NCBI GenBank assembly: GCA_964016885.1
Contig: OZ024751.1
Span: 48,484,001 to 48,548,000, forward strand
Length of the DNA stretch: 64,000 bases
Direction of reading: 5' to 3'
From: Eledone cirrhosa
Taxonomy: Eukaryota
Shown here: positions 22,602 to 51,141 of the stretch, one piece after another
How positions within the stretch are numbered: position 1 is the first letter of the stretch
How the letters are laid out: the number at the start of each line of letters is the position of its first letter
Made by a program: the position numbers and the translations under genes
Notes under the pieces: model-generated
The model's input: the letters and a program-made list of their open reading frames with translations, nothing else
What the model was told of the DNA's origin: nothing
Databases searched by the model: none

Positions 22602-24009
22602 TTATGGTAGAATGATAGGAGAATATTTTATACACTAGATATGTGAGAAAGTAGGAGGTAGGAAGGGAAGAGGAAGAGGGTAGCGAGTAAGGGGGAGGTA
22701 GTCTTAGGATTCAAGACTGCCAGAGTAGTAGAGATTGTATAGAAGAAAATGTTTTGGTAGCAGTTAGCTAAACGAGGCGTGTTTGGGTTGGCGGGGGAGG
22801 TAAATTCTTCTAGTGGTGTTGTTTGGACAAAATTTAGTTAAAGGGGTTAATGTAGTACAGAATTATAGACAAGTTTTTGGGGCTATTATAGTAGCAGGAT
22901 ATTTCCAAAGGGGTTTAAAAAACAGTGTTTAGTGCTATTATTATAAAAAGCCATATCGTGTGTATAAACATAAAAATATGAAATAAAAATAAAAATTTGC
23001 ATTATATATATATATATATATATATATATATATATATATATATATATATATATATATATATATAATTGAATGTAAAAGAAAGATAAACACAGATATAAGT
23101 ATATATGTGTTCAAATCGTAAGGGACCAGATTCGAGTCTGGCAAACCATATTGTTAATAGTTAGTATTTTTTTCACCCTAGCAAATCTGGTCCCTTACGA
23201 TTTGAACACATATATGTTCATATCTGCGTTTATCTTTCTTCTATATTCAATTATATTACACGGCTCAGATAAACCGCTCGCTTTCTTTGAGCTATTTAAT
23301 CGTAAGAGACTATTTTGAGTTTCTAACTCAATAATTACCTTTGATATATATATATATATATATATATATATATATATATATATATATATATATATATATA
23401 TATATATATATTATGACTAAGTGATGAGACTTGTCACTCTGGAGCTTCATCTGCGCACTTTAATGAGCCCGTGAATTGGCAGGTGAAACTCAGAGAAACA
23501 GGACTAACTACTTAGCTATAATAATCTACTCTGGTATCAAGTACTCTCTTCTCTCATCAGTCACCCACATACGGATATGTTTATATATATATATATATAT
23601 ATATATATATATATATATATATATATATATATATATATATATAAATATAAATTAGAGTTAAAACTCCAATTGAAACCCTGTAACTATTAAGCTCCAAGTA
23701 TAAAATACTGAGCCGTATAATAATATATATGCAGTAAGAAACACAGTAAACCGTGTGTCTAATATTACAAGAGTTGTAAAACCACATTTGTAATATTAGA
23801 CACACGGTATACTGTGTTTCTTACTGCATATATATTATTATATATATATATATATATATATATATATATATATATATATAAACATGCGAAAATTAACAAA
23901 GAAAAGACAACAAACGAAAACGAGAGTTTTGGAGTTCTGTGATTTTGGTTTTATCTCGTTTTCGTTCGTTGTCTTTTCTTTGTTAATTTTCGCAAGTTTA
24001 TATATATAT

Positions 24010-24058
24010 GCTTCCTGAAGATTTCATCTGAATGAAACAGTACTAGTCCTGTAGAAGC
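24010..24058 (+). ncRNA. hammerhead motif with disrupted stem I
   Basis: CTGAAGA-T.TTC-ATCT-GAA.T-GAAA-CAGTACTAG-TC-CTGTAGAA; 3' half shared with the palindrome at 35210-35310. Confidence 0.6.
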
Positions 24059-24092
24059 TCCTTCTATAAAAAAAAAATATATATATATATAT

Positions 24093-24299
24093 AACGAAGG
24101 AAATGTGGTAAGGAACCAGGTGGACCATAACGCACCAAAGTACTCAATACTTAGGGTAGTAGAGTGGGTAATAGGAACGAGTAGGACCCCGACGGCTGAG
24201 CTCAAGCCGTTTCGACGGCTAATTCTGGACTAGAATTCAGTCCAGAATTAGCCGTCGAAACGGCTTGAGCTCAGCCATCGGGGTCCTACTCGTTCCTAT
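24093..24299 (-). mobile_element. palindromic half-HHR element family P in (TA)n
   Basis: Palindrome 24171-24299 plus tail 24093-24170; homologous to 33881-34077, 44964-45058 and 49235-49442. Confidence 0.85.
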
Positions 24300-25439
24300 A
24301 TATATATATATATATATATATATATATATATATATATATATATATATATATATATATATATATATATATATATATACACATATATATAAATGTATATATA
24401 TATACAACACGCGACCAAAAAGATCTCACCACATGAAGAGAGCCCTAGACCCATGAAGACTCCCTAAATAGACAAAGACCCGCACAGAAAATGACACTCT
24501 CACAAAAACCCCTCCACTACATACAAATCCCTGCACATACAAACCCCTCACACCACTTACTACATATATAGAGGATAAATACTATTTTTTGTTAATATTT
24601 AAAATGACGTTAAAAAGGTCGTAATACGACATACAAAAAAACATCACGGACGCAGCAATAACATTATAAAAAGCAAAACATTTAGAAAAAAACAATAAAA
24701 ACAAAATGCTTTAAAATGCAAAAAGTAAATAAGTAATGAAAAAGAAATTGCAGTCCAAACAATGTAACACTAATGAAGGTAATTAGAACAGTTGATTTAA
24801 GAAGTTGATATAGTTGATACAGTCAACCAATCAGCCAAGCATCCTTTGCCATCGCCATTTTGAAAAACGTACAGTTACTTTCAAAACTGAGCAAGCAAAG
24901 CAATCACTGCTTATTGTCCGTCGTTTTTTGGTAGTGTTATTGTGGTTGTTATCAGTGTTGTTATTGCTGTTGCTGTTGATGTTGTTGTTGTTGTTAATAT
25001 AGTTGTTGTTGTTAATATAGTTATTGTTGTTGTTGTTAATATAGTATTGTTGTTGATGTTGTTGTTAATATAGTTATTATTGCTGTTGTTGTTGTCGTTG
25101 TTTCTGTAGTTGTTAATATAGCTATTGTTTTCGTTGATGTGCTGCTCTGTTGTTTACTATCTTTGAGGGATAGTGACGTTATTTCTGTCGTCTGGTTCAA
25201 CCATATTGTCGTTGATGATGTTGTTGCAGTTGTTGTTATGGCTACTGTTACAATTGCTGAATTTGCTATGGATTTTGTTACTGTTGTTGTTACAGTTTAT
25301 TTTTTAACGTTTGAATGAGCCTTAGTAATAAAATAATAGATAGTATTATTTGTATTATTAGTAGTAATAGTATTAGAAAAAGAAGGACTCGTATCATTAG
25401 AGACAGCAGTAGTACTGTTGTATCAGTACATGTTGTCAC

Positions 25440-25892
25440 AGCAACAGTAGTGGTAGTAGTAGTAGTAGTGGTAGCAGTAGTAGTGGTATAGTAGTAGTAG
25501 TAGTTGTTGTAGTAGTAGTAGTAGTAGTAGTAGTAGTAGTAGTAGTAGTAGTAGTAGTGGTAGTACTAGTGGTATAGTAGTATTAGTAATAGTAGTAGCA
25601 GCAGTAGTAGTGGTATAGTAGTAGTGGTATGGTAGTAGTAGTAGTATCAGTAGTAGTAGTGGTATAGTAATAGTGGTATGGTAGTAGTAGTAGTAGCAGT
25701 AGTAGTAGTGGTATAGTAATAGTGGTATAGTAGTAGTGGTATAGTAGTAGTGGTATAGTAGTAGTGGTATAGTAGTAGTAGTGGTAGTAGTAGTAGCAGC
25801 AGTAGTACTGGTATAGTAGTAGTATAGTAGTAGTGGCATAGTAGTAGTAGTAGTAGTAGTAGTAGTAGTAGTAGTAGTAGTAGTAGTAGTAG
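25440..25892. repeat. (TAG)n compound microsatellite
   Basis: Direct inspection. Confidence 0.95.
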
Positions 25893-26221
25893 TGTGGTTT
25901 GCTGTTTACATGGCAGATTCACAAGGAACATATCAGGCTGCCACTGTTCAAAATGCGTTAGTGTGGTGATATCGTTAATATCACTATGATACATAGATAT
26001 GCCTGCCTGTCTCTCTGTATGTGTGTGTATATATATATATATGTGTGTGTGTGAGGTGTGTGTGAGTGTGATTTTTGGGCGTGTGTATAACAATAATGAA
26101 GTAGATGTCAGTGTGCTTGAATCTTATATCATTTTAATGATATATATATATATATATATGTATACCATGATATTAAATAAATGGAAACTATATTTATAAA
26201 ACCATATTTATTTTATTACAT

Positions 26222-49234: not shown

Positions 49235-49442
49235 ATAGGAACAAGTTAGACCCCGACGGCTGAGCTAAAGCCGTTTCGACGGCTAATTCTAGTCCAGAAT
49301 TCTAGTCCAGAATTAGCCGTCGAAACGGCTTGAGCTCAGCCGTCGGGGTCTAATTCGTTCCTATTACCCACTCTACTACCCCAAGTATTGAGTACTTTGG
49401 TGCGTTATGGTCCACTTGGTTCCTTACCACATTTCCTTCGCT
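49235..49442 (+). mobile_element. palindromic half-HHR element family P
   Basis: Palindrome 49235-49364 plus tail to (TA)n. Confidence 0.85.
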
Positions 49443-49527
49443 ATATATATATATATATATATATATATATATATATATAGTATCATGTATTTTCTTTTCT
49501 TTTCTTGCCTGTGTATTTTCTTCATTC

Positions 49528-49646
49528 TCGCATGCTCCGAAGATCTGACTGGTTATAATTCTGTATTGGCCACCGAGTAACGCAAAATTAAGCGGATAGC
49601 GATCTCTAGACATACCAGTTCAGTGAAACAAATGTAAGCTATGTGA
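49528..49646 (+). ncRNA. type I hammerhead motif, CCGAAGA core, ~80-nt stem II
   Basis: TCGCAT-GCT-CCGAAGA-T.CTGACTGGT..ACCAGTTCAG.T-GAAA-CAAATG-TA-AGC-T-ATGTGA. Confidence 0.75.
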
Positions 49647-50234
49647 TTAAAAACTTTTTTGTATAGCAAACCATGTAAACCTTCTTTCCTGATTTATTAT
49701 TACTCCAAGTGTTTACAACATAGGAATTACGGCATACCCGCAGCATCACTATGAAAACGCCTTGTTGAGTCAAACCAAGCCAAGCGTTAATATCATCCAC
49801 TACCTGGAATACCATAACTGGACTTCACCTAAGTGGACTGCATTTAACTATTATTTGTTAATCCGTATATATATATATATATATATATATATGTGCATAC
49901 ATATATACGTATATATATATATGAAATAGTGTAATAATTTCATATATATATGTGTCTTACATAATTTCATATATAAATATAAGACATAAATATATGTATT
50001 GAAAAGGAAAACAGAAATAACAACACAATCGGTACAGTATATGGAATGAATATTATATATATATATATATATATATATTTTTTCGAAGGGTGAGAGCAGC
50101 GGTTCATATATATATATATATATATATATATATATATATATATATATATATATTATATATATATATAATATATATATATATATATGCGAATGTCTTCAGT
50201 AAAATATATATTTTGATTATAATCAAAATATATG

Positions 50235-50296
50235 TTTTATTATATATATTTAGAAGGTACTGTGCTGTTTTATCAGTACGTCCTCGTCAGATAAAA
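50235..50296 (-). ncRNA. hammerhead motif of the 20011 family, G12 mutated (likely inactive)
   Basis: TTTTAT-CTGACGA-GGACGTACTG..CAGTACCTTC-TAAA-TATATA-TA-ATAAAA. Confidence 0.7.
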
Positions 50297-50705
50297 TGCA
50301 TGAATTGATGTATGAAATACCTCAACTGTCTTGATGGTTCAGTTCCAGTATTGGCAGGGATTTATTACAACAAATCTCAAGATTTATATACCATAAATAA
50401 TAACATGATAAACTTAAATATTATGAAGAGGATGTTGAGCGAGATATAGGTATAAGGAGGGGGTGAGTATGAGAAAATGCAAGAAGAAATAAATAAACAC
50501 ATACATACATAAATATTTAAATGCGTAAATAAAACGTGTTAGGGAAGAAAAAGAGAGAGAGAGGGGAAGAGAGAGATAGAAGAGAAGAAAGAAGAGAAGA
50601 GAGAAGAAGGAGAGAGAGATAGAAGAGAGAAGAAGAAAGACGTAACTGCAAAAAGGAAAAACTCCATTGTAGAGTGCTTTTAATCTATTGTAAAACTATA
50701 TTCAT

Positions 50706-51141
50706 ATAAAACGAAAAATCAGTGATGCATCTGGACTTAGTTTATTTCGTGTTACAAATGTTTCGCCGGCATGTAGCTCGAGTCATGGTCCTTGTATGGA
50801 TCTGGCTGATTCTGCTTCTGCGGGTTCTTTTAGGCACGGGTGTTTCGTCCGGAGCAAATTTTATCAAATGTGAGCAAATTTTATCAAATGTGATAAAATT
50901 TGCTCCGGACGAACCACGCGTGCCTGAAAGAAGCCACAGAAGTAGAATCATCCAGATCCATACAAGGACCATGACTCGAGCTACATGCCAGCGAAACATT
51001 TGTAACACGAAATAAACTAAGTCCAGATGCATCACTGATTTTTCGTTTTATTTATAATATCTACACTCTACTCTGATGAATATCGAGTGCTAATTTTGGC
51101 ATACCGCCTATGGAAGCACCATAGCTACCACTATACACAAC
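50706..51141 (+). mobile_element. 346-bp palindrome (50706-51051) plus 3' tail ending in (TA)n
   Basis: Arms are reverse complements with scattered mismatches (mirror ORFs 50722+ and 50742-). Confidence 0.88.

Follow-up and report, generated by a model that had tools for sequence, protein, structure and literature searches.

Two tandem bulged hairpins in Hydra-clade Penelope-like elements lie beside both insertion ends and are likely docking sites for the reverse transcriptase

Background

Why should insertions of otherwise unrelated sequence share one small stem-loop near their ends? This question is raised by a 64,000-nt stretch of the Eledone cirrhosa genome (assembly GCA_964016885.1, contig OZ024751.1, positions 48,484,001 to 48,548,000 of the forward strand), which we call the window and whose coordinates are used throughout. 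The original prediction listed ten such stems, ACTC..GAGT or GCTC..GAGC, a few tens of nucleotides before the 3' TA junction, and proposed a conserved cis signal, possibly the recognition or priming structure of the reverse transcriptase (RT), in RNAs that depend on Penelope-like elements (PLEs). The reading we reach, with a probability of about 0.68, is that the motif belongs to a tandem pair of hairpins, A and B, in the pseudo-long terminal repeat (pLTR) of Hydra-clade PLEs, that copies end 0-9 nt 5' of either hairpin, and that the hairpins are likely RNA docking sites which position the RT and its endonuclease (EN).

PLEs are the retrotransposons closest to telomerase. How they choose a template and how the one-sided tail and the inverted copy arise are posed as an open question in two papers (PMC8557442 and PMC11167929; here and below, published work is cited for the accessible parts of each source). 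The Hydra clade was described among the PLEs with a C-terminal EN (Craig et al. 2021, PMC8557442).

Samples and definitions

Short insertions make up a (TA)n-rich mosaic in the window region. The host is treated as an octopod; the nearest named relatives of its PLE protein are Octopus proteins (68% identity). A sample of 1.86 Mb was assembled from the window, 1.39 Mb picked by coordinate and 0.41 Mb of search loci. The insertion form sought was (TA)n - inverted arm - sense arm - tail - (TA)n, in which most of the listed stems sit. Such fold-back insertions, defined by BLAST without use of the motif, amount to 200 elements; 195 have tails of at least 40 nt and fall into 47 clusters, 41 of them with at least one member in the unbiased (coordinate-picked) sample. 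Controls were 1000 dinucleotide shuffles and the reverse strand. The external set consists of 89 Hydra-clade loci, 76 from metagenomes and 13 from bins of metagenome-assembled genomes (MAGs), fetched with an alignment of 40 Hydra-type proteins. A hairpin model trained on the octopod copies was run on 81 of these 89 loci, and the resulting alignment is fitted to the model.

A conserved bulged hairpin beside the internal end

The motif is a hairpin with the basal helix R-Y-T-C/G-A-R-Y, a 2-nt bulge on the 3' side and a covarying inner helix, often followed by RCT. All ten stems of the original prediction are present where they had been placed, and nine fit this fold; the tenth, an ACTC/GAGT stem of 4 bp at 44502-44523 on the minus strand, is a doubtful member because its inner helix is broken and the sample holds no second copy.

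The enrichment of the motif over random stems, one of the points on which the original prediction depended, is clear. RYTC..GARY within 18 nt of the mirrored end is found in 23 of 47 cluster representatives, against 3.1 (maximum 11) in shuffled sequences and 7 on the reverse strand, and in 20 of the 41 clusters with an unbiased member (2.7 shuffled). Among all 256 four-base stems, ACTC (12 clusters, 0.17 expected) and GCTC (6, 0.07 expected) rank as the top two. The position to which the hairpin is tied is not the one first supposed. In 22 of the 23 motif clusters the hairpin starts 4-10 nt from the mirrored end, while both the loop length (11-73) and the distance to the 3' TA run (40-99 nt) vary. 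A fixed distance to the (TA)n junction is thus not observed, and the hairpin belongs just 3' of the internal, tail-less end; among the listed stems, the tens of nucleotides to the 3' TA hold as 38-64 nt, except for the stem at 48649-48708 with 100 nt. The triplet RCT (8 of 20 families, 0.6 expected) and TAYGG (7 of 20, 1.1 expected) do follow the hairpin often, as had been noticed, and are best described as enriched but optional.

The fold is supported by positions that played no part in finding the stems. For the inner helix we used 20 of the 23 motif clusters, leaving out two near-duplicates and one with a mis-picked 5' strand. With a 2-nt bulge, inner pairs 1-3 are paired in 57 of 60 cells, compared with 33.8 when the 3' strands are permuted (0 of 20000 permutations), and 51 of the cells are Watson-Crick (23.1 permuted); bulges of 0, 1, 3 or 4 nt give no excess pairing. 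The bulge reads TT in 11 families, TA in 4, TC in 4 and CT in 1. A scan free of sequence assumptions leads to the same geometry, since only 4 bp, a 2-nt 3' bulge and 3 bp are enriched (14 of 47 against 1.4) and eight other geometries stay at chance. The outer pair, which was left out of the definition, is A-T in 10 and G-C in 8 of the 20 families. On 19 hand-picked short-loop copies trimmed around the motif, RNAalifold predicts the basal helix, with G-C 11 / A-U 8 at one pair and C-G 16 / U-A 2 / U-G 1 at another; over the full structure this 19-row alignment has 98% of cells paired and 24 double changes. The non-canonical pairs of the octopod representatives are G.U in 7 cases and A.C in none. 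The sequence around the hairpin cannot be aligned between families, and a conserved second structure in the distal tail is not supported, the folding z-scores there being mostly above -2.

Two hairpins and two insertion ends

On the whole, 383 insertion ends were mapped in the unbiased sample, with 207 internal, 152 at the full tail and 24 in between, and TA repeats abut 301 of the 359 internal or full ends. The two classes are a tail-less end just 5' of hairpin A and a tailed end just 5' of hairpin B. Tailed copies stop just 5' of B, so only A is copied, and the 3' junction is set by a second hairpin that the tailed ends leave uncopied. The tail is 65-170 nt long here. Among 100 head-to-head pairs, 88 join a tailed to a tail-less copy, 4 are tail-less on both sides, 1 is tailed on both and 7 are partial.

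The second hairpin was predicted from outside the octopod genome. In metagenome loci the octopod-trained model matches in pairs upstream of the open reading frame (ORF), and a second hairpin was therefore expected just past the ends of octopod tails. Among 34 whole ORFs with at least 130 nt upstream, the strict pattern finds two hairpins in 14, one in 15 and none in 5 (0.06 in shuffles), and the paired ones lie 57-83 nt apart. For the commonest octopod family, F0, the hairpin-B pattern has 431 genome matches and the reversed pattern none; about 88 of the 100 matches listed are one hairpin B, GCTC-CTAC..GTAG-[TA]-GAGC, which begins 6 nt beyond the end of the tail. Hairpin B also follows the tail by 9 nt in 4 of 5 matches of the family found at 19960, and it is present in read-through copies of F2 (in locus L226, at 9 nt from the tail), of the L077 family and of F10, where four other copies have it complete, 6 nt past the tail. 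Of the 71 read-through ends that were examined, most lack it. Full pLTRs contain A and B, 57-97 nt apart; from 5' to 3' the order is ORF end, hammerhead, AT-rich site, A, tail, AT-rich site, B and the start codon (ATG) of the following unit. In most metagenome loci 12-43 nt separate the end of the last hairpin from the ATG; B lies 54-87 nt from the ATG in two octopod elements, whose A-B spacings are 78 and 97 nt. The minimum free energy structure of the whole F0 pLTR contains both A (P 0.39) and B (P 0.61).

The two arms of an insertion share their sequence variants. Arm identity is 93% within an insertion and 70% between insertions, for 28 of 41 fold-backs the closest relative of an arm is its partner in the insertion, and no two of the 19 centres that could be read are alike; part of the similarity within insertions could stem from gene conversion between arms. 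In F0 the centres cluster in the long stem II of the hammerhead. Families are not mixed in any of the 100 fold-backs of the unbiased sample. Outside this count, one mixed head-to-head pair was seen, an inverted end of another family with F0 (L238). Such chimeras are rare. In L252 and others (L246 and L250 are also chimeric), the 5' half of another family's hammerhead is joined to F0 in the sense orientation, which suggests template switching at the stems of hammerheads.

Carrier elements

Most carriers derive from autonomous Hydra-clade PLEs, as 3' ends truncated on the 5' side; five families are tied to ORFs. The commonest, F0 (24142, 34003 and 49370), is the pLTR of an intact PLE of 3,531 bp found in head-to-tail arrays (L367:381-660 and L367:657-2810, at G000:C1:437.20 Mb; also L368). 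Its 717-aa ORF is 40% identical over 695 aa to the protein P0002, with a GIY-YIG region read from the translation. This ORF has DKT (DKG -> DKT), its RWK motif appears as RWR, and the CxCX5C linker is present in the translations of L367 and L151; the CCHH motif is not evident on reading the L367 endonuclease by eye. Four motif families are sense continuations of Hydra ORFs, uninterrupted by any TA run. Since F0 is the pLTR of an intact PLE and four more families continue from Hydra ORFs, the carriers are not mainly PLE-dependent RNAs as had been supposed, and the elements, unrelated in sequence as described, have a common origin as the ends of one PLE clade. An earlier candidate identity of F0, a short non-autonomous RNA with a fixed 5' end, was dropped once it was recognised as the pLTR of the tandem PLE.

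Hammerhead cores of the form CTGANGA..GAAA occur in the family at 19960, in F1, F2, F4 and others. That of F0 deviates from CUGANGA and has a long stem II, and Rfam returns no match on the F0 pLTR. The fold-back in L069 (35,990 first-look candidates) contains the C-terminus of a Hydra-clade PLE whose 3' end is the family at 19960-20120; 13 of 29 other copies of this family continue into the hairpin-A tail and most of the remaining ones stop at the internal site. Two units are ORF-less: F8 (541 nt, at 34.6-35.2 kb), with a longest stop-free frame of 52 codons and a CTGATGA core, and F10 (about 590 nt, at 48.2-48.8 kb), with 76 codons and a deviant core. Only partial tandems of them were seen, and both fit non-autonomous riders.

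A search of the whole window against Rfam 15 gave, among the 150 of 445 matches listed, only sub-threshold microRNA-like matches to TA repeats; a PDB sequence search with the Hydra C-terminus gave no relative, and no Hydra-clade locus was found in viral contigs. A probe for octopod Naiad-type ends had no match in the sample.

The window also has a PLE of another clade, a decayed element with a tail-less end at 26247-28789 (plus strand), encoding RT and GIY-YIG with a CX4CX2C linker of Neptune/Nematis type. It is without RYTC/GARY. Its tail hairpin, GTTT/AAAC, has a 2-nt 3' bulge at offset 6, hence the same fold in a different sequence, and the inner helix is CAA/TTG in one subfamily (40323-40361, plus strand) and CGA/TCG in the other. 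This family is large and young (15,867 first-look candidates, with frames of more than 1,000 codons open elsewhere), and besides tail-less and full-tail ends it shows a third class right after the tail hairpin (L139, L141, L144, L146, L184).

Other genomes and published elements

Of 42 non-redundant 3' regions in the external set, 21 have the hairpin downstream of the hammerhead core (6.0 in shuffles), mostly as GCTC..[TT]GAGC ACT. Raw matches number 126 in sense and 18 in antisense. Among 105 distinct metagenome hairpins, the first inner pair is C-G in 58 and T-A in 29, and inner pairs 1-2 are Watson-Crick in 147 of 210 cells, compared with 78 permuted. For loci in which 3' and 5' copies could be compared, 11 of the 19 junctions not at contig ends fall from -4 to +1 nt of the start of A or B. 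Thirteen contigs with Hydra-clade PLEs are in bacterial MAG or symbiont assemblies (L349-L361); they are most likely animal host DNA that was misbinned.

Published consensi in File S7 of PMC8557442, read by eye, are in accordance with this distribution. The coral Hydra-2_Amil and the sea-cucumber Hydra-2_Ajap end with GCTC..GAGC ACT, the copepod Hydra-1_Crog has the hairpin with one mismatch, Hydra-1_Amil shows it weakly (ATTC..GAGT), and Hydra-1_Ajap has two hairpins at its 5' end; two consensi, one being Hydra-1_Obim, stop before the tail. In File S2 of the same paper, several Hydra-clade hammerheads have the stem III ACTC-N-GAGT, identical to the basal pairs of the tail hairpin, for which common origin or strand swapping are possible explanations.

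Proposed mechanism and alternatives

The mechanism we have in mind would begin with a dimer of the RT-EN binding A and B on one read-through RNA, one hairpin per subunit, and nicking both strands of the (TA)n target. Each 3'-OH would then find 2-5 nt of TA-like microhomology immediately 5' of a hairpin and anneal there; priming before A would yield a cDNA with no tail, and priming before B one that includes a copy of the tail together with hairpin A. Head-to-head joining of the two 5'-truncated cDNAs, often through self-complementary hammerhead stems, would give the fold-back, and ORF-less units keeping the hammerhead, A and B would be mobilised in trans. Enrichment, covariation and end mapping agree on a conserved cis element linked to the start of reverse transcription on PLE RNA, which upholds the core of the original prediction. 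As to a structure for RT recognition or priming, the register with ends resembling RT starts is borne out, while protein binding is likely on the grounds of position and conservation.

A relevant parallel is the Poseidon element PAc of Anolis (Frangieh et al. 2024, PMC11167929). This PLE nicks both strands of AT-rich DNA, and its RT begins at two internal positions, one on each side of the tail; RNA 3' of these positions is required, and a dimer is predicted. Two starts with the tail between them, double nicking at AT-rich DNA and a predicted dimer are all shared with the scheme above. In that paper, the only in vitro study, an 'AC-rich stem loop' situated 111-118 nt inside the ORF is given as the place of initiation, the protein-binding motif is unmapped within the first 172 nt, and the accessible part of the paper describes no conserved or paired hairpin.

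Several observations weigh against the docking of an RT on paired RNA hairpins. The motif is missing from 24 of the 47 tail clusters, some being single-mismatch cases and some other clades or noise. When isolated tails are folded, the probability of the basal helix is below 0.2 in 4 of 20 and only 0.02 for the commonest family, and in a shorter F0 window the 5' strand of A pairs with the 3' side of B instead. The covariation counts are not independent events because the families are related, and the basal T-A and C-G pairs are uninformative on pairing because they are invariant. In the metagenome set, the reverse-strand control for the 3' regions reaches 14 against 21 in sense, inner pair 2 is paired in only 65 of 105, G.U (19) and A.C (14) carry no strand signal, and under the strict pattern 15 of the 34 5' regions have a single hairpin and 5 none; of the 19 junctions, 4 fall elsewhere, 2 pass through a tandem and 2 coincide with degenerate hairpins. 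The search for hairpin B found none for F1, whose pattern has 23 heterogeneous matches, nor for the non-Hydra PLE, with 2 matches. The alternative pairing of A with B (L367:481-610) could itself act as a switch.

The ends might instead be set on DNA, the GIY-YIG endonuclease recognising the hairpins in donor or new cDNA, cutting just 5' of them and resolving the intermediate. The D. virilis Penelope endonuclease is recounted to need tail sequence for recognising and cleaving plasmid DNA (PMC11167929), PMC8557442 attributes the tail to EN-mediated resolution, and no G.U excess exists in the metagenome set. We nevertheless regard this as unlikely: G.U against A.C in the octopod hairpins, 7 to 0, favours a single strand in sense, the bulge keeps to one side in the sense orientation, and for PAc these two ends are where the RT starts in vitro (PMC11167929). 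Moreover, tailed insertions lack hairpin B, which must therefore act on the template and not on the product. Nor do we expect, with similar doubt, that the hairpin merely processes or stops, the transcript being cut just 5' of it by a host nuclease or by itself, or an RT copy-back halting there, with no docking. No Rfam ribozyme match covers the pLTR, PAc initiates internally on uncut RNA (PMC11167929), and solo tail-less copies are common. Copy-back would also give arms that share variants and centres that are unique, and such a signal suits the sharpness of the ends, but it leaves unexplained a tailed end just before a second, uncopied hairpin.

A translational operator or packaging signal for the ORF protein, with ends that simply follow nearby AT-rich stretches, is suggested by the 12-43 nt between last hairpin and ATG in most metagenome loci and by the AT-rich flanks. 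It is very unlikely, for both hairpins are retained by units that have no ORF, 54-87 nt separate B from the ATG in the two octopod elements, and ends stay within a few nucleotides of a hairpin though AT-rich stretches are everywhere in the untranslated regions. Chance 4-bp stems are already refuted by the shuffles. Even with passive shared ancestry added, such an origin is extremely improbable: about half of the tail clusters are without the motif and one listed copy (44502) fails the inner helix, as it would allow, but enrichment, geometry, covariation and the successful prediction of F0 hairpin B all oppose it, and the surrounding sequence is unalignable between families.

Relation to known systems and significance

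The insertion pattern, the tail and two-site initiation are already known. A conserved hairpin with a bulge, its presence in duplicate and its register relative to the two ends were not found in Rfam or in searches of the open-access full-text literature. The accessible main text of PMC8557442 has no occurrence of 'stem-loop', and that of PMC13282606 has no match for hairpin, stem or Hydra. Our elements share with the published Hydra clade (PMC8557442) DKT, CxCX5C, a C-terminal GIY-YIG, the pLTR hammerhead, (TA)n targeting, the inverted 5'-truncated copy and the one-sided tail, which is 30-40 bp there and 65-170 nt here, bounded by the hairpin pair. Non-LTR retrozymes (Li et al. bioRxiv 10.64898/2026.07.22.740005; PMC7229834) are ORF-less with a type I hammerhead, derive from PLE pLTRs and resemble F8 and F10; unlike them, most carriers here are truncated autonomous PLEs, and the accessible part of the bioRxiv paper describes no 3' recognition hairpin.

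A small structured RNA that is common to autonomous and non-autonomous partners and positions target-primed RT has likenesses in other retroelements. Stringent LINE RTs recognise 3' stem-loops, as in eel UnaL2/UnaSINE1 and the R2 3' untranslated region, and telomerase has template-boundary elements. In LINEs the hairpin is situated 5' of the start and is itself copied, whereas here the start is 5' of the hairpin, internal and doubled, a logic nearer to a boundary element beside the template. Helitrons and HINEs have a short hairpin near the 3' end, AT-rich targets, a CTRR end about 11 nt after the hairpin and no link to an RT. The first two traits are shared by our elements, in which, however, the hairpin is 40-99 nt from the end, with no fixed CTRR. 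A Helitron or HINE identity was rejected, as the CTRR end occurs in 1 of 20 tails and the elements are continuous with RT-GIY-YIG ORFs.

A 20-30-nt hairpin, occurring twice and next to each insertion end, is conserved in Hydra-clade elements of cnidarians, molluscs, arthropods and echinoderms. The pair offers a simple geometric account of the one-sided tail and the inverted copy, with a precise mutational test, and the intact tandem copy in the genome (L367) is a source for biochemistry. The hairpin may also be used as a marker for assigning short unclassified (TA)n-flanked cephalopod repeats to Hydra-clade PLEs and for spotting ORF-less riders. More tentatively, and with odds that we put below even, a code of two hairpins for two active sites may be general in endonuclease-bearing PLEs: a hairpin pair, one per RT-EN subunit, would set both starts, the fold being shared across clades and the sequence clade-specific, and any RNA given the pair would be cargo. 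The cross-clade part is proposed because the Neptune/Nematis-type element of the window, with GTTT/AAAC, likewise has a 2-nt 3' bulge, and one of its inner pairs is compensatory. If true, such a code would yield tail, one-sided asymmetry and head-to-head inversion in a single reaction.

Copies and related elements in the window

The type example is the F0 insertion at 49238-49441 (plus strand), which consists of (TA)n, a tail-less inverted arm, a sense arm, a hairpin-A tail and (TA)n; its hairpin A is at 49370-49393, and it matches the 3' end of the intact tandem PLE in L367. Two other F0 hairpins are at 34003-34026 (plus), where the stem first placed at 34011 is an alternative register, and at 24142-24165 (minus), a newly recognised copy with the fold-back 24174-24296. 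The register is probably also to be shifted for the hairpin of the fold-back 50706-51051, to 51065-51088 (plus; ACTC/GAGT, TC bulge).

Three hairpins are of the GCTC/GAGC type. That at 23263-23292 (plus, TT bulge) is in the tail of a fold-back with arms at 23065-23251, that at 23691-23713 (minus, TG bulge, 4 inner pairs) is also new, and that at 31653-31673 (minus, TA bulge) is downstream of a CTGACGA..GAAA hammerhead core without fold-back. Hairpin A of F1 is at 35317-35335 (plus), following the fold-back 35210-35310 centred in hammerhead stem II, and that of F2, a family which elsewhere runs on from a Hydra-clade ORF, is at 28985-29009 (plus). In F4 (49168-49187, plus) the bulge has 1 nt instead of 2; this family lies about 230 nt beyond the end of a Hydra-clade ORF in L150 and L239.

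The GTTC/GAAC variant belongs to F8 and is found at 31078-31101 (minus), at 34209-34232 (minus) in the tailed inverted arm of the F8 fold-back, and at 34656-34679 (plus) within the ORF-less 541-nt unit; a candidate hairpin B with a mismatched outer pair is at 34760-34800 (plus), just beyond the end of tailed F8 copies. For the ORF-less F10 unit, the 3' strand of hairpin B is at 48231-48236 (plus) and the long-loop hairpin A at 48649-48708 (plus), with the fold-back 48042-48635. The tail-less 3' end of another Hydra-clade PLE, with hammerhead core and internal site, is at 19960-20120 (plus).

Finally, a tail-only fragment at 43258-43316 begins inside hairpin A of a long-loop family and has TA runs on both sides. 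At 40600-40670 a tRNA-like head has an A-box stem ACTC..GAGT, a coincidental match to the simple pattern. Two LINE-like RT pieces of higher GC, one in or beside the other, are on the minus strand at 16000-19450, and two tandem arrays unrelated to the hairpins are at 38399-39051 (73-bp) and 10389-11330 (56/107-bp).

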